Shown: piece by piece, positions 901 to 44,501 of the stretch
Position numbering within the stretch: position 1 is the stretch's first letter
Layout: every line of letters starts with the position of its first letter
Virus record (IMG/VR): IMGVR_UViG_3300030380_000259
Span: 1-55,909 of that record
DNA from: a virus
Lineage: Duplodnaviria > Caudoviricetes
DNA: 55,909 nucleotides
Reading direction: 5' to 3' (one strand)
The notes under the pieces: generated by a model
Databases searched by the model: none
What the model was told of the DNA's origin: nothing
The model's input: the letters and a program-made list of their open reading frames with translations, nothing else
Position numbers and translations under genes: made by a program

Positions 901-1284
901 TTATTTCTTTCCGAAGAATTTAGTTGCGCTACGTACTCCAAAAGAAGCAGCCACAATAATACCAAGACTATACTGATACCATTGCGGCATCGCTTCCAAC
1001 TGGGCAAACCCATTTGCTACCACCTCTTCCATTCCCGGTATGAACGCTAGTATAAGTGGAATACTAAACAGTATGGTAAGCCATTCGTCTTTCCAAGAAG
1101 ACTGACTACCTTTAGCCATCTCCAAATCCCAGTCTATTTCCCCAGTAGCTTTCTTCTGCATTACTATAGCTTCGGCTTGCGCTCTAGCTACTTTGGTTGC
1201 TGACTGAGCTTTCTTTTCTTCTACCTTACCACTTAACCATGTACCAGCTAAATCTGCTACAGGTCCTATTAGCATATTAAGCAC
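901..1284 (-). CDS. Holin (GTA 3TM-holin-like)
   Basis: SWKDEW motif, PxWYQ motif and FGVRS C-terminus. Likely start is GTG 1284 or ATG 1275, not 1383. Confidence 0.7.
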   Translation of the reverse strand: MLNMLIGPVADLAGTWLSGKVEEKKAQSATKVARAQAEAIVMQKKATGEIDWDLEMAKGSQSSWKDEWLTILFSIPLILAFIPGMEEVVANGFAQLEAMPQWYQYSLGIIVAASFGVRSATKFFGKK

Positions 1285-1522
1285 GTCTAAACCTCGCTGT
1301 TTTCTTTGCAATACTCTTCGGTTGTTTGACGAACTGCTTTCCCTTCCTTGTTCCTTCTCTCTTCGCTCGTGATGTTGCCGCATATTCCGCAGATGTAAGG
1401 CTCTTTATCGCTGAAGTAGGAAGGTAACGCTCTCCAGTTTCGCTTGATTTTTTCCCAGACTTTGTTCGCCATTTTTGTTTCGTCCACGATTTTAAACTTT
1501 GTTGTGATTTTGCTAATGCCAT
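1277..1522 (-). CDS. Small basic protein (DUF5872-like, SLxxWTxxxW part)
   Basis: QSLKSWTKQKWRTKSG...ERYLP; very K/R-rich. Confidence 0.65.
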   Translation of the reverse strand: MALAKSQQSLKSWTKQKWRTKSGKKSSETGERYLPTSAIKSLTSAEYAATSRAKREGTRKGKQFVKQPKSIAKKTARFRRA

Positions 1523-1523
1523 A

Positions 1524-1973
1524 TTACATACCCTGTAAAAACATAATCCACCAGATTATACCACCAATACCACCTACAGCTACTAAAATTAGTACACCTA
1601 TTAAAATAGCATCTATTAATTCTTTTTTCTGTCTTTCAGCTAGTGCTATCTTACGTTGTCTTTCTTTCCTAGCTTTTGCTTGAAATGTTTGCCAGTCTTG
1701 CCACAATCCGGGACGACCAGCCCATATCATATATTCTTTAATCCACTCTTCTTCTTCACGAATCTTTTCAAGTGCCATAAACTCTTCTAGTTCTGACCCA
1801 CCTTTATCACCCCAAAAGCTATTCTTTTTCTTTTCACCTCTATGGCGTAAATCTTCTTTAGCTTCCACAAACTTAAAGATACTGTCTCCTGCATCAACAA
1901 TATCTTTTCCGTTCTGTAAAGTTTGTTTTATCACGGCAAACGCCGCATTTGCTGCGGCTAACTCTGCTAACAT
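1524..1973 (-). CDS. Hypothetical protein with C-terminal TM helix
   Basis: AGGAG RBS, tight operon packing, C-terminal hydrophobic segment. Confidence 0.75.
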   Translation of the reverse strand: MLAELAAANAAFAVIKQTLQNGKDIVDAGDSIFKFVEAKEDLRHRGEKKKNSFWGDKGGSELEEFMALEKIREEEEWIKEYMIWAGRPGLWQDWQTFQAKARKERQRKIALAERQKKELIDAILIGVLILVAVGGIGGIIWWIMFLQGM

Positions 1974-1999
1974 GTGTCTCTCCTTTCACGTGTAGCATT

Positions 2000-2284
2000 T
2001 TATTTGTAACCACCACCAGCTTTCTTATATGCTTGTGCAAGCATCTGTGCTTTACGAGCAGACCATTGACCTGCACCACCACCTTTTGTTCCAGCTTTGA
2101 TACGTTGGAACTGCCGTTTACGCATTGCAGGTTTTGTATAATTACCTGCTTTATTTACTGTACTACCACCTTTGTTTAATTTAAGGCTAGATAAAGTCTT
2201 AGCTTGTTTAGCATGTAAGTTAGATGCTTTTTTTAAACCTGCTACAACTTTTTTAACTTTCTTTTTATTTGTTGTTTTTGCCAT
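2000..2284 (-). CDS. Small basic protein (DUF5872-like, GQWSARKAQ part)
   Basis: NYTKP...KGG..GQWSARKAQMLAQAYKKAGGGY. Confidence 0.7.
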   Translation of the reverse strand: MAKTTNKKKVKKVVAGLKKASNLHAKQAKTLSSLKLNKGGSTVNKAGNYTKPAMRKRQFQRIKAGTKGGGAGQWSARKAQMLAQAYKKAGGGYK

Positions 2285-2287
2285 AGT

Positions 2288-2641
2288 TTACCTCGCTGGG
2301 TCAAAGTATTCCTCTGCTGCAAATAAAGCTATAATATCGTTAGCATTACTACCAGTTCCTTTTAGTACATCACCCTCACTCATAAAGAAAGGTTTACCGT
2401 CATCAAATATGTAAGCAATGTTTGCAGATTGAGTTACGCTAAATGCATCTATTATCTGTTGAGGAGAACCCCCACTTGCTGTATAGGTTATATCAAAAGT
2501 TCTATCAGCTACATTTGATATATTGGTAAACGCTAAAAGTTTTATAACAGCTACGTAATTTTCAGGAACAGTATATATTGTTGTATCAGTATCTAACGGC
2601 ACAACATCATTTTTAAATTTAACGGTATTTAAAGACGGCAT
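2288..2641 (-). CDS. Hypothetical beta-rich protein (possible virion component)
   Basis: RBS AGGA; TIYTVP motif typical of small phage structural proteins. Confidence 0.65.
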   Translation of the reverse strand: MPSLNTVKFKNDVVPLDTDTTIYTVPENYVAVIKLLAFTNISNVADRTFDITYTASGGSPQQIIDAFSVTQSANIAYIFDDGKPFFMSEGDVLKGTGSNANDIIALFAAEEYFDPAR

Positions 2642-2653
2642 GATATTATCCTA

Positions 2654-2764
2654 TTAACCAAAAAAGTTTTTAGGCTTATTAGCTTTATTAACATTTTTAT
2701 TGTGTTTTCCCGGTCTACGTATACGTTTCTTTTTTATAAACTCGTTAGCAAATTGTTTTGCCAT
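2654..2764 (-). CDS. 36-aa basic peptide MAKQFANEFIKKKRIRRPGKHNKNVNKANKPKNFFG (below ORF-track cutoff)
   Basis: ATG overlaps the SET gene stop (TAATG). Fills the gap. Its Pro-Gly is coded CCG GGA like all other Pro-Gly pairs in real genes. Confidence 0.7.
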   Translation of the reverse strand: MAKQFANEFIKKKRIRRPGKHNKNVNKANKPKNFFG

Positions 2765-3120
2765 TATTCTAGTCTACTTTCCCAATAATCATGTCCATAA
2801 TCATGTACTATTTCTTCATCTTTTTTAATATCTTCAACTGCAAAAAATCTAACAAACCTATCATCTGTTTCAGATATTTCCCATTCAGCATTAGGTTTAG
2901 AACTATGATTATATATCATAGCGTAACCAAGAGGTATTAAAAAATCTGTATCATCTTCGTATGGTGAATAAAAAATATAATTATGTAATATGCAATCTTC
3001 TTTTATACTATCTTCATTAACTATCAGATAAGGACACATCTCAATAGTATCACCTTTGAAATAGTCCTTATCTGCAAATATACCATGACCATGTATACTA
3101 GAATCTGCTAGATACGGCAT
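2764..3120 (-). CDS. SET-domain protein-lysine methyltransferase
   Basis: HGHGIFA (GxG motif I), YNHSSKPN (NHS motif) and EEIVHDYG (ELxxDY motif). Confidence 0.9.
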   Translation of the reverse strand: MPYLADSSIHGHGIFADKDYFKGDTIEMCPYLIVNEDSIKEDCILHNYIFYSPYEDDTDFLIPLGYAMIYNHSSKPNAEWEISETDDRFVRFFAVEDIKKDEEIVHDYGHDYWESRLE

Positions 3121-3269
3121 TACTTCTTTTTCTTAGCCATACCACCACGCATCATTTTCTTTTTCTTAGCCATTTTAGCCATACCACCACCCATCATTTT
3201 AGGTTTCATAGTACCGCCACCGCGCATCATTTTTTTCTTTTTAGCCATTTTTGCTTTGCCCATTGCCAT
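3120..3269 (-). CDS. 49-aa Lys/Met/Gly-rich repetitive peptide (below ORF-track cutoff)
   Basis: Translates MAMGKAKMAKKKKMMRGGGTMKPKMMGGGMAKMAKKKKMMRGGMAKKKK. AAGGA lies upstream. Its TAA overlaps the SET ATG. Confidence 0.8.
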   Translation of the reverse strand: MAMGKAKMAKKKKMMRGGGTMKPKMMGGGMAKMAKKKKMMRGGMAKKKK

Positions 3270-3786
3270 TTCTTAGTTTCCTTCTTTCTAATACTAAAGA
3301 TTGATATACTTCTTCAGGGAAATGTTTATAGTACCCTGACTTTTCTAAACTTAGTGCCGCACTATCCAACACTGATAATAATTGTATGAAAACCATACAA
3401 TATTCTAACTCGTCACTAGTAATGCCGTTATCGTCTAAAAATTCTAAACCAGCTTCACCAGCATCGTAGTCAGGGTGAAACACCATCAAATGCATATCTA
3501 TACCTGCAATTGAAAATGCTTCGTTCATACCATCACAAAGCCCATCAAGATATTCTATGTGCGGTAATTCTTCAGATGCCCATACTACTATATCATAGTT
3601 ATGTTCATTAAACTTTTCTACTTCTTCACGTAAACCTTCAAATCCTGTATTGATACTAAACTTTACCTGATTATCTACCCATGCTTTTCTAGCATAAGGA
3701 CAAGGTGGTAAGCCGTTTAACTTATCATTAGGAACTTCAAGAAAGTCATGTGACCACTTACGTATGTCAGCTTCTACTGGATGCAC
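3241..3786 (-). CDS. DUF1415-like protein
   Basis: PPCPYAR and FHPDY motifs. Confidence 0.6.
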   Translation of the reverse strand: MHPVEADIRKWSHDFLEVPNDKLNGLPPCPYARKAWVDNQVKFSINTGFEGLREEVEKFNEHNYDIVVWASEELPHIEYLDGLCDGMNEAFSIAGIDMHLMVFHPDYDAGEAGLEFLDDNGITSDELEYCMVFIQLLSVLDSAALSLEKSGYYKHFPEEVYQSLVLERRKLRNGNGQSKNG

Positions 3787-4063
3787 GTGTTTTATTCTTT
3801 TGTTGTTCTATAAATTTTCTATACACACCAGCCGCACCAGCTTTTCCAGCCGCTTTAGCTCGTTGCTCCATAGCGATAGCCGCTTGTGTTTTATGATTAT
3901 GGCTTCTGCTCGATGATTTTATTTTACGTACAGATGCCTGTGCATCTTTTACTGTAGCAAACTTTAAACCGTGAATTGTACCTTTTGGGTCTTCATCCGT
4001 ATACAGGTCACTGTGCTTTTTACTTTTAGCAGGTTGACCTTTTTTTCTTGGTATTCTACGCAT
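3767..4063 (-). CDS. Basic hypothetical protein (DLYTDExPKGTIHGL family)
   Basis: Conserved-looking motif; overlaps both neighbours. Confidence 0.7.
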   Translation of the reverse strand: MRRIPRKKGQPAKSKKHSDLYTDEDPKGTIHGLKFATVKDAQASVRKIKSSSRSHNHKTQAAIAMEQRAKAAGKAGAAGVYRKFIEQQKNKTRASSRS

Positions 4064-4664
4064 TTTTTGTAATTTTATTAAATACCTCTGGGTTTGCTTT
4101 CTTTAATGCTTTCAGTCCCGGGTTCATTGTGACTGAACCACCTGCTGCATACATATGTGCTTTGCCATATGCCATACCACCATTAGCCATCTTTGTTTTA
4201 CCTTTAGGCATCATACCTACACTAACTGCAATAACAGGTACTTTCTTTTTCTTTGACATGCCACCGTCTTTCATTTTTGTTTTATCTTGCGGTTTTTTGT
4301 CACCCATACCTTTTGGTTCAGCCCTTTTCCTTGCAACTTCTCTAATTTTTTTTAAATTTTTTTCTTTAATTATTTCTGCTTTAGTTTTTTCACCAACGGG
4401 TTTACGTGGTTTAACATCTTTTAAAGGTTTTTTCTCAATCAAATGTGTTACAAACATATCTTTTAAAGATTTTTCTCTTTTTGCAATAGATTCAGCAGCA
4501 CCATCATTTTCTTTTAACCATTTAATTTCTGCTTGTATTCTATCATAAGATTTTTGTACATCTTTTGACCTAGTACGTGCCAGACCACGTTGACCTAGTT
4601 GTATGCGTTTTGCATCGGGTTTAGCTATAGTATCTGAAGCTGTTCTTAATACTTTACCTAACAT
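4056..4664 (-). CDS. Lys-rich hypothetical protein with three xxGG motifs
   Basis: AGGAG RBS; MKDGG, MANGG and YAAGG. Confidence 0.75.
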   Translation of the reverse strand: MLGKVLRTASDTIAKPDAKRIQLGQRGLARTRSKDVQKSYDRIQAEIKWLKENDGAAESIAKREKSLKDMFVTHLIEKKPLKDVKPRKPVGEKTKAEIIKEKNLKKIREVARKRAEPKGMGDKKPQDKTKMKDGGMSKKKKVPVIAVSVGMMPKGKTKMANGGMAYGKAHMYAAGGSVTMNPGLKALKKANPEVFNKITKNA

Positions 4665-4680
4665 AATAATCTCCTGTTAA

Positions 4681-4965
4681 TTAACATTTCCATCTTCTAC
4701 GTGCTTGTCTTAAACGACTGTTAGGGTCACGAGCCGCTTTTGGAAACTTTTTCATTTGTCCAGCAGACCTAGCACAAAAAGACTTGCGCCTCTTAGCATC
4801 TTTACTGCCTTTTTTAGGATTGCCTGTTACAGCAGTTTGTAATTTACTTCCGGGATTTTTTCTTCTATAAGCTTTTACCCCAGCTTCTGTCATACCTGCG
4901 CCCTGTTTTGTAGGGCGAAAGTTTTTCTTATTTCGTTTTGGCATGTTGTCGGGTTTACGTGGCAT
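4681..4965 (-). CDS. Basic protein, DUF6321-like
   Basis: GMTEAGVKAYRRKNPGSKL...RRKSFCARS...RRWKC; likely start at ATG 4965. Confidence 0.7.
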   Translation of the reverse strand: MPRKPDNMPKRNKKNFRPTKQGAGMTEAGVKAYRRKNPGSKLQTAVTGNPKKGSKDAKRRKSFCARSAGQMKKFPKAARDPNSRLRQARRRWKC

Positions 4966-4967
4966 AA

Positions 4968-5159
4968 TTATATACCTTTTTCTTCTTCGCATTTAAAAGA
5001 AAATGAATGTGGTGTGCCTAATAATTCTGATACATCTATAACCATCTGAGAGGCACGTTGTTCACACTGTACTTCTGTAAAATACGGACCCCAATCATCT
5101 TCGGCAATAATACATTGACCTGTTAACATAGAACAAGCCATTACAAATGTTGTAAACAT
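4968..5159 (-). CDS. Small Cys-containing putative exported protein
   Basis: Hydrophobic N-terminus, four Cys, GPY-x4-C motif; start overlaps the upstream stop. Confidence 0.6.
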   Translation of the reverse strand: MFTTFVMACSMLTGQCIIAEDDWGPYFTEVQCEQRASQMVIDVSELLGTPHSFSFKCEEEKGI

Positions 5160-5510: not shown

Positions 5511-5588
5511 TTAAATGATTACAGTTAAAATGTTATTGGCAAAGGAATTATTTAAGGAATAGTTAACTATTTCAGTTTAACTGTTATA

Positions 5589-5617
5589 ATTATACCAGTT
5601 TTTACAGGAAGTGTCAA
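5589..5617 (-). promoter_or_regulatory. Consensus sigma70 promoter driving the leftward (late) arm
   Basis: TTGACA-N17-TATAAT with TG extension. Confidence 0.8.
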
Positions 5618-6003
5618 GCCCTCAAATAGGAAATAGGTAAAGTTTTTCTCTATCTATGTATAAAATAGGAAAATATTCTATAATAGTGAGTATAAAAGTA
5701 TCAGTTGTAGTTGTGGTTAACACTTAATTTACCTAATCTGTGTATTTATTCATGCACATATACGCACTACCCCCGTGTGGCGCATGCACGACCCCTTCAT
5801 CTGTCGATGAAGACTGCCCCAAAAGTCTGATTCAGCAACATTTTCCATAGAAAATGCTAGGAAAACCAAGTGTTTCAGTAGTTAAAACTACTGTTATGGT
5901 ATCAGTCGTCACTCTTCGAGTGGTTTGTAAAGTTGTAAACTAGGGATTTGTAAAGAATTTACAATGCCGATGCTTGGCTTCTTCATTCATTTATGAATGG
6001 TCA

Positions 6004-7249: not shown

Positions 7250-7430
7250 AATTGAAAGGTTTTAAAATGTAGCGAAAATCTAATGGCAAAAAAAGTGTGA
7301 GTAGGTTCGCCCCATGTGAATTGAAAGCTATGCCAAGCAAGGTGACATGGGGGCATACCGTAAAAGTCTAGGCGGTATGTAGGCAGTGATGCGACCACGT
7401 AAAAAGCCTAGCATCCTTTAACTTCGTTAC
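7250..7430 (+). ncRNA. Putative structured non-coding RNA (three adjacent stems)
   Basis: Stems CCCCATGT/ACATGGGG, GCATACCG/CGGTATGT and AGGC/GCCT; no credible ORF; lies between two boxes. Confidence 0.4.
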
Positions 7431-7461: not shown

Positions 7462-8088
7462 ATGAAAAAAGAATTTGAAATGGAAATTGCTATCAAGAAT
7501 ATTATCGCTATCAGACGCAAGGCAAAGCCTGAAGACGTAGCAGACGGTATCGCATGGTATGCAAAAGCATACGAGGAGTGCCGTATCATTGCTGAGAGAT
7601 TCGACTTGCCATTGCATATGGTAGTGGGTGTAGTTTCTGCTTTGTCACCCAACAATCGTTGGGCAACTAACATAATCAATGCGAGAGATGTTATCGAGAC
7701 ATGGGATTGTGGCTATGCCCCTGATACAGTTTCCGTATGTACTTACAATGCCATGAAGCTAAAAGCCTTTGCCATCTTAGATGGTGGTAGCAAAACCATT
7801 GATGAAGTAAAAGCTATCTTGAATGGCAAGAAAATTGTATGTTTCTTTGAGAATATACTAGGTGAGGACACTTGCACGATTGATGGTCATGCTCGTAACA
7901 TTGCATACAATCAACGTGTCAATCTTACAGATGCTAAAACTAGCATAGGCAAGCTAGAGTATGCCAATCTACAAGAAGCATATTTGCAAGCGTCAAAGCG
8001 TTGTAGCGTCAATGGCAGACGCTTGAAAACATACGAATTGCAAGCAATTACATGGGTCACATGGAGAAAGATGCACAATATTGCATAG
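7462..8088 (+). CDS. Conserved phage protein, distant HhH-GPD DNA-glycosylase-like fold
   Basis: WY...ALSPNNRW..N...K...F..NI...TIDGH...QAITW pattern. Confidence 0.55.
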   Translation: MKKEFEMEIAIKNIIAIRRKAKPEDVADGIAWYAKAYEECRIIAERFDLPLHMVVGVVSALSPNNRWATNIINARDVIETWDCGYAPDTVSVCTYNAMKLKAFAILDGGSKTIDEVKAILNGKKIVCFFENILGEDTCTIDGHARNIAYNQRVNLTDAKTSIGKLEYANLQEAYLQASKRCSVNGRRLKTYELQAITWVTWRKMHNIA

Positions 8089-41264: not shown

Positions 41265-44200
41265 CTAGCCTAATAGTTCTGAAGTTGGGGGTGTAAATTT
41301 ATTTCCTGCAATTGCATGAGCAACCGTACCTCTTTGTATTCTAAAGTTAGAGATGTAACCACTAAAAGGATAACTATTATCCCAACGTCCACCTAAACCA
41401 AATTCTTGTAAATCATACCCAGTTGAACTACTAAGAGTACCATTACCCATAATTTTACCATCGATATAAGAACTATAATTAAAAGTATTTCCACCTTGGT
41501 ATTCCTCTGAATAATAAAGATGATGCCATGTTCTAGGATGCACATGATTTGATATAGCTATATCATAAGTACTACCACTTGTTGAGTGTCCTCTAATTCT
41601 TAGATTATTAGATTGAAAACCTATTTGAAAATTTGCAGCACTAGAGGAGGCGTTATAAGTACTCATTATATGTGTGTTAGCACTAAAATCATCTTCGTCT
41701 AACCAGAACCAAAATTCTATAGACATGTTATCAGCCGCACCACCAGTTGTACTACCCATTGTGTAAACTGAAGAAGCACCTGTATGCGTTAGTTTGAGTA
41801 CTTGGTCTGAGTTTTGTGGAAAATAAACTGACTTCATACCATCTGCAGGTCCGAAGTCATATACAGTAGGTGCTGTACCATTAGTAGCTACTGACCAACT
41901 TCCACTTACAGTTGTAGAAGATGCGGCATGACAGGCAAGTAAAAAGGTATTACTATCTGCAGTTAATGTTTTTGCTACAGTATCTAGTGGTAATCTAACA
42001 TGGTCTAAACTTACTCTAAAATCTTCTATGTAAACATCCGCACCATTAGAATATCCACCAGCAATTACAAAAGTACCTGTGGTATTAATATCTTGAGTTC
42101 CTGAAGTGCTTTTTGTAGCTACTAAAGTACCATTTAAATATAAATATATTTTATCATAAACACGAGTAAGGGCAACATGTGTCCAAGCTGTGCTTAACAT
42201 ATTATTATTAGCTGAACCCATAGTAGAACTATCAAATCCAGATATTGAAGAATTGATATTTCCACCAGTAATATATACAAATAATCCAAAACCTGACCGA
42301 AGTTGGCACGTAATATTGTTGTTAAAACCGCCCGGACTAACTTCAAATAAAGTTTTTTCACTACTATTTATAGTGCTATCTAACCAATACCAAAATTCAA
42401 TAGTAAAATTTTTTCGTCCAAAATACAATCTTTCCGCATCATCTCCCTTGTCATCAAAATAAACACCATGACCCGAAGCTGAAGCATTTGGACGTATTGA
42501 TGCAGAAGCATGTTTTGTTCTAGTTGTAGATGATGTAGTAGAAGCCAATCTTACTCTATGATTTTTACTAACATCAAATATTTTTGAAGCAGATGGATTT
42601 ATTAAAAACTTAGTATTTGTTATAGCAGTTAATGGTGCTGAAGGTGGATTAAATGCGCCTGTATATACAGCAGTTCCTTTTACAACTCTCAAATCTGCTA
42701 TATAACCCTTAAAAGGAGATGAAGTAGCATTTCCATCTATACCTATATAAAAATTACCTGCCTGATAATTAGTACTATTAGTTGCAGTTCCAACAGAAAC
42801 ACCATTTACATAATAGGTAAGAGTAGTACCGTTTCTAACAAGAGCTAAATGATGCCAAGTATTTACATAAGGATTATAGGCAGAAGTAAAAGTGTGGTCA
42901 ATATCAGTTCCCGGACGACTAACCGTAATCTCTCCATTGCTTCGTAGATGTGAGCCAATTCCAGTTGTTCCATAACCTACAGCAAAAAGTATAGCATAGC
43001 TTGAAGCTACTGTTTGATATGCCCAACATTCAATTGTAAAATCACCTGTGCCAAATGCAAAATCACTGTTACTTCCTGCCGAAAGGTAATCACCTGAACC
43101 ATCTAAAAATACTGAACCTTTGTGTTTACTAGCATTGTAAGTTACTGTATCAAAAGGACTGAATGTATTTTTTTCAATAGTGCCATTATATGTGAAAGTT
43201 TGATTTTGACCTGACTCATCTTTTAAATAAGGTAGTGCGCCTAATAACAATTTAGTATTTGTTATAGCAGTTACATTTTCATAAGGAACATCTATAGTTG
43301 TATTTGACGCATTATTAGGATGAGAACCATTAATAAATCTAACTCCTCGTACAAATCCTTCAAATCCTTCTGAACTATTTCCAGTTGCACCAATGTATGC
43401 ATAGGTATTACCTGTACTAATTGAGGCACTATAACTACCATTATGAGCAATTCTACTGCCATCATAAAATATTGCTATATTTGTACCTGTTCTAGAAACA
43501 CACAGATGATGCCATTCACCTTTTCTAAAAGATTGTGTAGATGTTAATTGTCTATCTATAGAACCATCATGCCAATAAGCAGTAATCTTGTTACTATTTG
43601 AATTATCATAGAGCATAAGACCAAAAGATTTACTATCACTGTAATACGGTCCTAAACCAAATCCACGAGTTTCGTTTTGGAAACTGTAAGATGGAGCAAC
43701 ATAGAACCACCCTTCATATGACCAATCACCTGTTCCACCTATATCAAAATCAGCGGATGAACCAGTTCTAATATATGATTGATTCGTATTTAAAAGTGTG
43801 CTATATCCCCCATTTTTATAAGGAGTAAAAGTAGTAGTATGAGCATCATTAAATAAACTTATTGTATGATTACTAGTAGAGGAATCGGTAACTGTATTAT
43901 TAGTTCCAGCATTACCACTAGCTTTAATTAAAAATGTAGTTTTTTTACTATTTTCAGTAGGTATACTAAATACTAAAGTAAATGTAGAAACAACATCTGT
44001 ATTATTAACACTATCAGATGCTCTAAAAGTTAATGTACCGCTTTCAGTTGTAGCAACACCATCTGCTTTAGGTGTAACTGTAAATACATTTGTATTGTTA
44101 CCTGTACCTTGTGCTACAGTAGCAAGCCCATTAAAATTATTATCTGCTATAGCACTATATGTGATAGTAAAACCTTCAGGGTCAGTAGCTACTACTGTGA

Positions 44201-44501
44201 TTGTAGTTGCTGTGCTACCATCTGTGGCTAAACTATAAGATGAATTAGGAGATGTAGTATATGTAGGTGATGTATTGATAAGTGCTATTACATACCAACC
44301 TGATGAACCCCTAATGTACAAACCATTGTTTGCTGTAACAAATCCTAAGTCACCTGCACTAACACCTGAACTTGGTAGGTCAGATAGATTAGTATATGTA
44401 GTAACACCACTGATAGCAAGCGAACCATCTGTTGCAATGTTGTCAGACGCAACTGCCGCACCTATACTTGTAGCTAAATCTCTATTACGTGATTCGGTCA
44501 T
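41265..44501 (-). CDS. Multi-LamG / concanavalin A-like receptor-binding protein
   Basis: Repeated FTIExW, WHHLAL and FxGYIxxxR motifs. Confidence 0.88.
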   Translation of the reverse strand: MTESRNRDLATSIGAAVASDNIATDGSLAISGVTTYTNLSDLPSSGVSAGDLGFVTANNGLYIRGSSGWYVIALINTSPTYTTSPNSSYSLATDGSTATTITVVATDPEGFTITYSAIADNNFNGLATVAQGTGNNTNVFTVTPKADGVATTESGTLTFRASDSVNNTDVVSTFTLVFSIPTENSKKTTFLIKASGNAGTNNTVTDSSTSNHTISLFNDAHTTTFTPYKNGGYSTLLNTNQSYIRTGSSADFDIGGTGDWSYEGWFYVAPSYSFQNETRGFGLGPYYSDSKSFGLMLYDNSNSNKITAYWHDGSIDRQLTSTQSFRKGEWHHLCVSRTGTNIAIFYDGSRIAHNGSYSASISTGNTYAYIGATGNSSEGFEGFVRGVRFINGSHPNNASNTTIDVPYENVTAITNTKLLLGALPYLKDESGQNQTFTYNGTIEKNTFSPFDTVTYNASKHKGSVFLDGSGDYLSAGSNSDFAFGTGDFTIECWAYQTVASSYAILFAVGYGTTGIGSHLRSNGEITVSRPGTDIDHTFTSAYNPYVNTWHHLALVRNGTTLTYYVNGVSVGTATNSTNYQAGNFYIGIDGNATSSPFKGYIADLRVVKGTAVYTGAFNPPSAPLTAITNTKFLINPSASKIFDVSKNHRVRLASTTSSTTRTKHASASIRPNASASGHGVYFDDKGDDAERLYFGRKNFTIEFWYWLDSTINSSEKTLFEVSPGGFNNNITCQLRSGFGLFVYITGGNINSSISGFDSSTMGSANNNMLSTAWTHVALTRVYDKIYLYLNGTLVATKSTSGTQDINTTGTFVIAGGYSNGADVYIEDFRVSLDHVRLPLDTVAKTLTADSNTFLLACHAASSTTVSGSWSVATNGTAPTVYDFGPADGMKSVYFPQNSDQVLKLTHTGASSVYTMGSTTGGAADNMSIEFWFWLDEDDFSANTHIMSTYNASSSAANFQIGFQSNNLRIRGHSTSGSTYDIAISNHVHPRTWHHLYYSEEYQGGNTFNYSSYIDGKIMGNGTLSSSTGYDLQEFGLGGRWDNSYPFSGYISNFRIQRGTVAHAIAGNKFTPPTSELLG

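Follow-up and report, generated by a model that had tools for sequence, protein, structure and literature searches.

Can a bacteriophage carry a SET-domain lysine methyltransferase together with the protein that it modifies? We address this question for a locus in IMG/VR virus record IMGVR_UViG_3300030380_000259, whose 55,909 bases were analysed in full (the window, a whole virus record rated 100% complete). On the minus strand of the window, a predicted SET gene directly follows a gene for a 49-residue peptide rich in lysine, methionine and glycine (the K/M/G peptide; feature coordinates are collected in Table 1). An earlier note on this DNA had proposed that the two genes form a translationally coupled writer–substrate pair. 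We find that the adjacency of SET and peptide is real but confined to one phage group, and we tentatively favour the phage's own polycations, with the K/M/G peptide first among them, as candidate substrates of the enzyme.

Sequence and gene content identify the window as a complete marine podophage of the HMO-2011 type. In DNA, Puniceispirillum phage HMO-2011 is the nearest match, with 72% identity across 35% of the first 8 kb; among the late genes there are matches to the portal, adaptor and fibre families of SU10/GP4-type podophages and to a large terminase. SAR116 is an abundant bacterial group of the surface ocean. Passages of PMC9038755 and the HMO-2011 record give a SAR116 strain as the host of HMO-2011, and the same passages describe HMO-2011-type phages as among the dominant marine viral groups.

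The SET enzyme and the K/M/G microprotein

The SET open reading frame (ORF) matches the Pfam profile PF00856 with an E value of 2e-14 (54.3 bits, cut-off 22.4), its residues 11–109 spanning the complete profile (positions 1–105 of 105). SET enzymes are recognized by an N-terminal GxG motif, an NHS motif and the tyrosine of a C-terminal ExxxDY-type motif. The earlier note had read a compact, stand-alone SET domain with all three motifs intact, and comparison with homologues bears this out: an alignment of 16 sequences has 34 invariant columns, among them the GxG, NHS and DYG positions, and Gly11, Gly13, Asn71, His72, Tyr108, Gly109, Tyr112 and Trp113 are the same in 16 of 16. Homologues are mostly 116–125 residues long, and the window protein comprises the SET core without pre- or post-SET domains. 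The closest sequence of solved structure is vSET of the chlorovirus PBCV-1 (E 1.4e-19). vSET (3kma) is also the top Foldseek match of an AlphaFold2 (AF2) model of the enzyme (predicted local distance difference test (pLDDT) score 83), with template-modelling (TM) scores of 0.76/0.85 at 29% identity. Altogether 311 chains in the PDB match the model at E ≤0.001, every row shown being a SET enzyme, and the next-closest folds are the minimal SETs Plasmodium PFL0690c and S. pombe Set7. The assignment of the SET beta-fold rests on this predicted structure. Judged by its catalytic motifs and modelled fold, the window protein is an intact minimal vSET-like enzyme, and it is probably an active S-adenosylmethionine (SAM)-dependent protein-lysine methyltransferase.

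The likeness to vSET (A612L) extends to size and architecture: both proteins are viral, lack flanking domains and have 119 (vSET) and 118 residues. vSET is the best match in both sequence and fold, and the NHS and (S/D)YG motifs align (YNHS..PNA/DYG in the window, FNHS..PNA/SYG in vSET). The dimer state and the virion packaging of vSET belong to the background of that enzyme; our comparison is one of sequence and fold. Unlike vSET, which is only 29% identical, the nearest relatives of the window protein are bacterial SETs of the SAR116 group (48–55% identity). We know of no histones in the bacterial hosts of the phage. Passages of PMC10117894 describe vSET as a histone H3 Lys27 methyltransferase from a chlorovirus, a virus of a eukaryotic alga; with a bacterial host, histone H3 Lys27 is an implausible substrate for the phage enzyme.

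The K/M/G peptide reads exactly as the earlier note had quoted it. It contains 17 Lys, 13 Met, 9 Gly, 6 Ala, 2 Arg, 1 Thr and 1 Pro (35% Lys, 26% Met and 20% Gly), no Asp or Glu, a net charge of +19 and three MAKKKK units. Its architecture consists of repeated M-x-G-G(G)-M-A-K...KKK units that end in a conserved C-terminus, KKKMMRGGMAKKKK. Across groups of related peptides, the M-x-G-G motif occurs 3.0–4.4 times per peptide. Neither Pfam nor PHROG holds a match for the peptide. The ESM Atlas contains it letter for letter, and its 30 nearest clusters there are all viral, unnamed and without a Pfam family.

Conservation establishes that the peptide is encoded. In IMG/VR, at least 119 viral contigs match the back-translation of the C-terminal motif MMRGGMAKKKK. 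One of these, L104, was dropped for having no ORF of at least 30 residues with the motif, and the other 118, together with loci L001 (HMO-2011), L002 and L004 and the window, gave 122 rows. All 122 have an in-frame ORF from an ATG through the conserved C-terminus, despite many length variants. These rows hold 99 distinct DNA versions of 105–402 nucleotides (nt), which fall within 135–222 nt except for one truncated and seven long forms, and the frame is kept in all of them; of the other two sense frames, +1 is closed in all 99 and +2 in 97. The same ORF in more than 100 viral contigs is therefore far beyond chance. Asp and Glu are absent from all 64 unique short forms. Two codon comparisons that do not depend on how the rows were selected point the same way. 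When the window is compared with L004, a locus found through its SET, 14 of the first 18 codons are identical and the other 4 differ synonymously, with 0 non-synonymous changes and with neighbouring proteins of the two phages at 28–85% identity. In the comparison with HMO-2011, 10 of the last 20 codons are identical, 7 differ synonymously and 3 non-synonymously. An unannotated K/M/G ORF of 50 residues is present in HMO-2011 itself, between gp66 and gp65 (about 5801–5971 of its RefSeq record), and in roseophage CRP-345 the homologue sits where a shorter, 123-nt gp77 is annotated. Two deep clades preserve the C-terminal 14 residues and the grammar of the repeats. In long forms of 99–218 residues, this tail follows several different N-terminal domains, basic or helical, that all lack a Pfam match. 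We conclude that the K/M/G ORF is a real, strongly conserved gene for an acid-free polycationic microprotein, and that it belongs to the conserved backbone of the HMO-2011-type phage group. The fact that its C-terminus does not vary points to a specific partner and not just to charge.

Other explanations of the ORF were considered and set aside. It could be a frameshifted C-terminal extension of the 181-residue protein encoded just upstream; none of the 8 longer relatives read (of 68, including the four longest, up to 218 residues) contains that protein. For a non-coding element, no Rfam match was found at 2600–3400 and Tandem Repeats Finder (TRF) detected no tandem DNA repeat in the gene; the repeat is therefore maintained in the protein. 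Of the 99 DNA versions, 82 and 93 have open antisense frames, which we ascribe to codon composition; on the plus strand of the window, this region lacks any ORF of 25 residues or more.

Protamines, H1 and Hc1 share with the peptide a very high content of Lys/Arg and a lack of acidic residues. Its share of methionine and glycine departs from their composition: classical DNA-condensing polycations have Ala/Pro/Ser or Arg alongside Lys, and few Met. Adenovirus Mu and pVII offer another parallel, being short, acid-free basic peptides of the virion core that are thought to neutralise packaged DNA. The repeated M-x-G-G of the peptide resembles the consensus of adenoviral protease sites. Processing at this motif was considered and rejected: Peptidase_C48 and Peptidase_C5 have 0 matches in the phage and no Pfam protease was found in 20 large late ORFs, which leaves the resemblance unexplained. 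Related K-M-x-x-G-G-M/Y-x-K-K modules, for example KMANGGMAYGKAHMYAAGG and KKGGMAKKKKYNKGGYAKCGASYKG, occur in other small proteins of the window phage, HMO-2011, CRP-1, CRP-345 and pelagiphage HTVC027P; the K/M/G tail therefore looks like one case of a wider GG-repeat basic module in marine phages.

Genomic linkage and SAR116 relatives

As the earlier note had described, the TAA of the peptide gene overlaps the ATG of SET, and the SET stop overlaps the ATG of a gene for a 36-residue basic peptide: each pair shares a single base (3120 and 2764, respectively), and both junctions read TAATG. We examined how general this arrangement is with a profile-based scan for SET relatives that made no reference to the peptide. 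It returned at least 231 viral stretches, of which the best 80 were inspected; six with less than 230 nt of upstream sequence were left unscored. Among the remaining 74, the stop of a K/M/G ORF overlaps the start of SET in 73. The exception, L153 (986–1851), has the order peptide, 119-residue gene, SET, a shift of SET by one gene that leaves it in the same region. Relatives with 92, 70 and 61% SET identity that were found through SET likewise all have a K/M/G ORF directly upstream (3 of 3), in one case as a 111-residue form with an extra N-terminal domain. Approached from the peptide, 96 unique loci remain after duplicate removal among the matches listed, and in all 47 of these that bear SET it is the next gene. 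The 73 loci all belong to one phage group and therefore represent few independent events: the adjacency is real but confined to that group.

The closest cellular relatives of the phage enzyme, by sequence, are chromosomal SETs of SAR116 bacteria. In a search with one genome per prokaryote species, the 11 best matches were 48–55% identical over the whole length and all from Alphaproteobacteria; six are labelled SAR116 or Puniceispirillaceae and the others just Alphaproteobacteria. These cellular proteins have 122–129 residues in 10 of the 11 loci whose ORFs were read, and 149 residues in L131. Among the SAR116-family genomes screened (G001–G096), 87 of 96 contain a SET match at E ≤1e-5. Like the phage enzyme, the SAR116 proteins are acidic; unlike it, they are near-core, have cellular neighbours and are less acidic. 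Their loci (L125–L136) fall into two conserved chromosomal settings, one with a Gate-domain membrane protein and an acyltransferase/GNAT protein and the other with a molybdopterin oxidoreductase. Median net charges are −21 for phage SETs (n=48), −14 for SAR116 SETs (n=11) and −5 for other cellular SETs (n=5).

A quick maximum-likelihood tree groups 46 phage SETs into a single clade with a Shimodaira–Hasegawa-like approximate likelihood ratio test (SH-aLRT) value of 93, in a polytomy with SAR116 clades. Phage and SAR116 sequences lie near each other and far from those of Myxococcus and Gammaproteobacteria. The pattern suggests an exchange of SET between phages and the SAR116 host lineage. Because the gene is near-core in that bacterial family and patchy among the phages, transfer from host to phage would be the simplest explanation. 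This agrees with what is expected of an auxiliary gene, namely nearest cellular homologues in, and widespread throughout, the host lineage of the phage group, the host of the window phage being presumed from its group. Among cultured and deposited phages, the search found a relative in one megaphage only (two records) and none in HMO-2011. The megaphage, LR756501 (735 kb, unannotated), carries a 40% identical SET at locus L230; the frames around it are broken into short ORFs under table 11, which may point to another genetic code.

What the phage SET may modify

We propose that the phage SET is an active enzyme of host lineage that uses the polycations made alongside it as substrates, the K/M/G peptide first, and so modulates their binding to polyanions, in a facultative pairing. 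We regard this as a plausible reading held with some reserve. SET, presumably exchanged with the SAR116 lineage and most simply passed from host to phage, would share its minus-strand transcript with seven lysine-rich basic microproteins, and these polycations, foremost the K/M/G peptide, would be its most likely substrates. Methylation would keep their charge and alter bulk, hydration and protease sensitivity, so that the modified polycations may bind nucleic acid or another polyanion differently. In relatives that lack SET, the peptide would be either unmethylated or methylated by the SET of the host. The conserved adjacency (73 of 74 loci) speaks for this reading, as do the opposite charges of the two proteins (−18 versus +19), the unusual acidity of phage SETs in general and the lack of terminator-like sites in this part of the gene string. 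Precedents exist in cells: passages of PMC3980110 report that Chlamydia cpnSET methylates Hc1/Hc2 and that Methanosarcina Go1-SET methylates MC1-alpha, in each case an endogenous basic DNA-binding protein. Our working model follows them in placing a small prokaryotic SET on a lysine-rich nucleoid protein of the same organism. The differences are that these are cellular systems with larger substrates, that enzyme and substrate are not reported as neighbouring genes in those passages, and that the activity of the phage enzyme is a prediction. A predicted complex of SET, K/M/G peptide and SAM scored 0.00 (mark 0.32) in a run without controls and counts neither for nor against binding.

Several observations weigh against a dedicated pair. 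Among the matches listed, 49 of the 96 unique peptide loci, HMO-2011 included, have no SET, and none was seen in the stretch of CRP-345 that was scanned. In SET-less relatives the same AAGTAATGCC junction usually leads into other genes: a 119–123-residue MPxL gene, the 36-residue gene, a 419-residue structural gene, or genes for 83 and 64 residues. The TAATG overlap thus joins the peptide to unrelated genes, and coupling is therefore a property of the slot and not of SET. The earlier note had taken translational coupling as a sign of the pair, a role that it loses here. The position behind the K/M/G gene is an accessory-gene slot whose contents differ among relatives. In a FastTree phylogeny of the upstream 181-residue gene (without support values), a deep clade with MAMKPRAM peptides, which includes the roseophage type, is entirely without SET, and the second clade is a mixture of phages with and without SET. 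Loss or gain of SET has therefore happened repeatedly, on the background of a peptide that hardly changed. The enzyme, for its part, also occurs alone. Two distant phage SETs, at L005 and in the megaphage locus L230, have no lysine-rich ORF upstream, and no K/M/G ORF lies beside the chromosomal SAR116 SETs in the loci inspected. A search of 5 SAR116 genomes with the peptide profile gave 0 of 5, which, lacking a positive control, shows little. Two phage SETs, L028 and L074, fall outside the main phage clade, and the polytomy at that node is compatible with one origin of the phage SETs as well as with more than one. Thus each partner occurs without the other, and neither requires the other for its existence. 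The earlier proposal of a writer–substrate pair is thus partly supported, by the adjacency, the opposite charges and the precedents of cpnSET/Hc1 and Go1-SET/MC1-alpha; mutual dependence is contradicted by peptides without SET (49 of 96) and by SETs without peptide in SAR116 and in the two distant phages. One sequence variant does speak for a link: GGMAKM[AST][KR]K occurs in 29 of the 37 unique peptides that accompany SET, compared with 3 of 14 and 0 of 13 from SET-less groups, a difference that is confounded by relatedness.

A target in the host is, in our estimate, nearly as likely as a phage polycation. The SET would then be a host-derived auxiliary enzyme that methylates the same SAR116 protein as the core SET of the host, or another host protein, to maintain or redirect host physiology during infection, and its position in the slot would be historical. 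The enzyme may simply retain its host substrate, which is a further point against the phage polycations. This account fits the homologues in 87 of 96 SAR116-family genomes with their chromosomal contexts, a slot that holds many unrelated genes behind the same junction, a peptide that is unchanged where SET is absent, and the displaced SET of L153; host-derived auxiliary genes have also been reported for HMO-2011-type phages, in passages of PMC9038755. It has to accommodate the direct adjacency kept in 73 of 74 loci, and the host already supplies the enzyme, so that a redundant copy needs a reason. Moreover, phage SETs are only 48–55% identical to host SETs and more acidic (−21 versus −14), a divergence that suggests a shifted, more cationic target.

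The more elaborate form of the polycation proposal, close to what the earlier note had envisaged, is a chromatin-like phage module: a captured SET would methylate the MAKKKK units, the methionines would act as lysine mimics that hold the enzyme, and methylation would tune nucleic-acid condensation during packaging, ejection or takeover, with SET-less phages of SAR116 using the host SET. We consider so complete a scheme doubtful. Its use of methionine borders on a separate explanation, in which the Met/Lys-rich peptide occupies the lysine channel of a host or phage SET as a tether or inhibitor, instead of or besides being a substrate. Methionine in a lysine-like context fills the SET lysine channel, as in the solved SETD2–H3K36M complex, and Lys-to-Met peptides and EZHIP/CATACOMB inhibit SET enzymes (passages of PMC5335568, 10.1101/585729 and PMC6609211). 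The phage peptide interleaves its 13 Met with 17 Lys in a similar manner, in MAKM/KKMM contexts, and the SAR116 host lineage has a core SET that could be the target. H3K27M, H3K36M, EZHIP and CATACOMB belong to eukaryotic chromatin systems, however, and the Met-richness of the phage peptides is independent of a phage SET (25.9%, 21.1% and 25.2% in peptide groups with and without it). The family is also present in roseophages. We rate this role as very improbable. Equally slim are the prospects of a functionless peptide whose translated, A-rich poly-lysine ORF and overlapping stop merely set the translation rate of the next gene. Such a leader would account for the AAA/AAG codon runs and for a TAATG overlap that is conserved with whichever gene comes next, but not for amino acids conserved through synonymous change, for the C-terminal 14 residues and repeat grammar shared by two deep clades, or for the 99–218-residue forms with the same tail on other N-terminal domains. 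Methylation of the phage polycations by a facultative SET remains the reading that we prefer.

A minimal SET of viral/prokaryotic type in a bacteriophage appears new to print. The literature searched, which did not extend to the supplements of PMC9038755, held no report of a bacteriophage SET lysine methyltransferase, of the K/M/G peptide family or of a SAR116 SET. No paper was found that joins HMO-2011 with a SET domain, and the only one joining SET domain and SAR116 was an unrelated paper on HIMB59. In the parts of PMC9038755 covered, supplements excepted, this main comparative paper on the HMO-2011-type group contains neither 'methyltransferase' nor 'lysine'. Protein lysine methylation as an interface between phage and host is almost unexplored in bacteria. 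The locus supplies a small enzyme with a short list of candidate substrates on the same predicted transcript, and the phage SET points to an uncharacterised, near-universal SET in SAR116. Should the preferred reading be true, phage polycations would be a plausible new class of SET substrate.

Gene string, neighbouring genes and other features

Table 1 Features of the SET locus and related modules (positions in the window unless a locus is named)
Feature	Position	Strand	Remark
K/M/G-rich microprotein gene	3120..3269	-	49 residues; ORF read in the sequence
Stand-alone minimal SET-domain lysine methyltransferase gene (predicted)	2764..3120	-	118 residues, net charge -18
36-residue basic microprotein gene (MAKQ...KPKNFFG)	2654..2764	-	conserved; accessory gene of the SET slot
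Acidic 181-residue gene (phrog_28122)	3241..3786	-	conserved, net charge -18
117-residue gene (MPxL..SKF type)	2288..2641	-	conserved
AAGGA Shine-Dalgarno-like site	3279..3283	-	9 nt 5' of the peptide ATG; read from the sequence
Perfect sigma-70 consensus promoter-like site	5589..5617	-	TTGACA, 17-nt spacer, TATAAT, TG; 12/12 positions
Cluster of lysine-rich basic small proteins around SET	1277..4992	-	seven proteins
K-M-x-x-G-G-M/Y-x-K-K module protein, window	4056-4664	-	
K-M-x-x-G-G-M/Y-x-K-K module protein, L001	6470-6817		
K-M-x-x-G-G-M/Y-x-K-K module protein, L147	5111-5494		
K-M-x-x-G-G-M/Y-x-K-K module protein, L148	2634-2804		
K-M-x-x-G-G-M/Y-x-K-K module protein, L149	7117-7473		

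The peptide and SET genes belong to a minus-strand string headed by the sigma-70-like site at 5617–5589, which continues through the lysis and packaging genes. The only terminator-like sites on this strand lie at 5140–5116 and 988–950, and a site scan found none between 5116 and 988. A promoter-like site with 10 of 12 consensus positions (5563–5590, plus strand) faces the opposite way within the same 780-bp gap between divergent gene blocks.

The basic proteins clustered around SET have 103 (DUF6321), 202, 98, 49, 36, 94 and 81 residues, net charges of +11 to +32 and lysine contents of 16 to 35%. Several represent families without an assigned function that marine phages commonly carry (DUF6321, phrog_17747). 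The K/M/G family and its basic neighbours illustrate how conserved microproteins of abundant marine phages have been missed or left unannotated. The 36-residue gene recurs after SET in L002 and straight after the K/M/G gene, without SET, in L073 and L113, so that both lysine-rich small ORFs of the earlier note are conserved genes. HTVC027P gp51, also of 36 residues, was compared as a possible relative of the 36-residue ORF and shows no homology. The 117-residue gene next to the 36-residue ORF of the window is 28% identical to its L004 homologue, and its type directly follows the K/M/G gene in many SET-less relatives.

Upstream, the acidic 181-residue ORF overlaps the peptide ORF by 29 nt, which the earlier note did not mention. 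Its product matches phrog_28122 (E 3.9e-71), and wherever a row has an upstream ORF (103 of 103), a homologue precedes the K/M/G gene. Given the opposite charge and the universal synteny, the 181-residue protein is a candidate partner of the peptide. It has an invariant L-P-x-C-P-Y-A motif where a predicted helix begins and a weak match to Pfam DUF6875 below the cut-off (E 0.035). Its AF2 model (pLDDT 78) gave no convincing fold match, the best Foldseek hit against the PDB having an E value of 0.043 and the best VIA-align hit a Z score of 5.9, in the noise range.

Elsewhere in the window, a sub-threshold Rfam match to GP20-b RNA (31.7 bits, gathering score 36.2, E 6.8e-4) at 7351–7410 on the plus strand lies just 5' of ORF 7462–8088. 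A late protein of 1078 residues (41265–44501, minus strand) contains four Laminin_G_3 (concanavalin-like lectin) stretches and is probably a fibre or receptor-binding protein.

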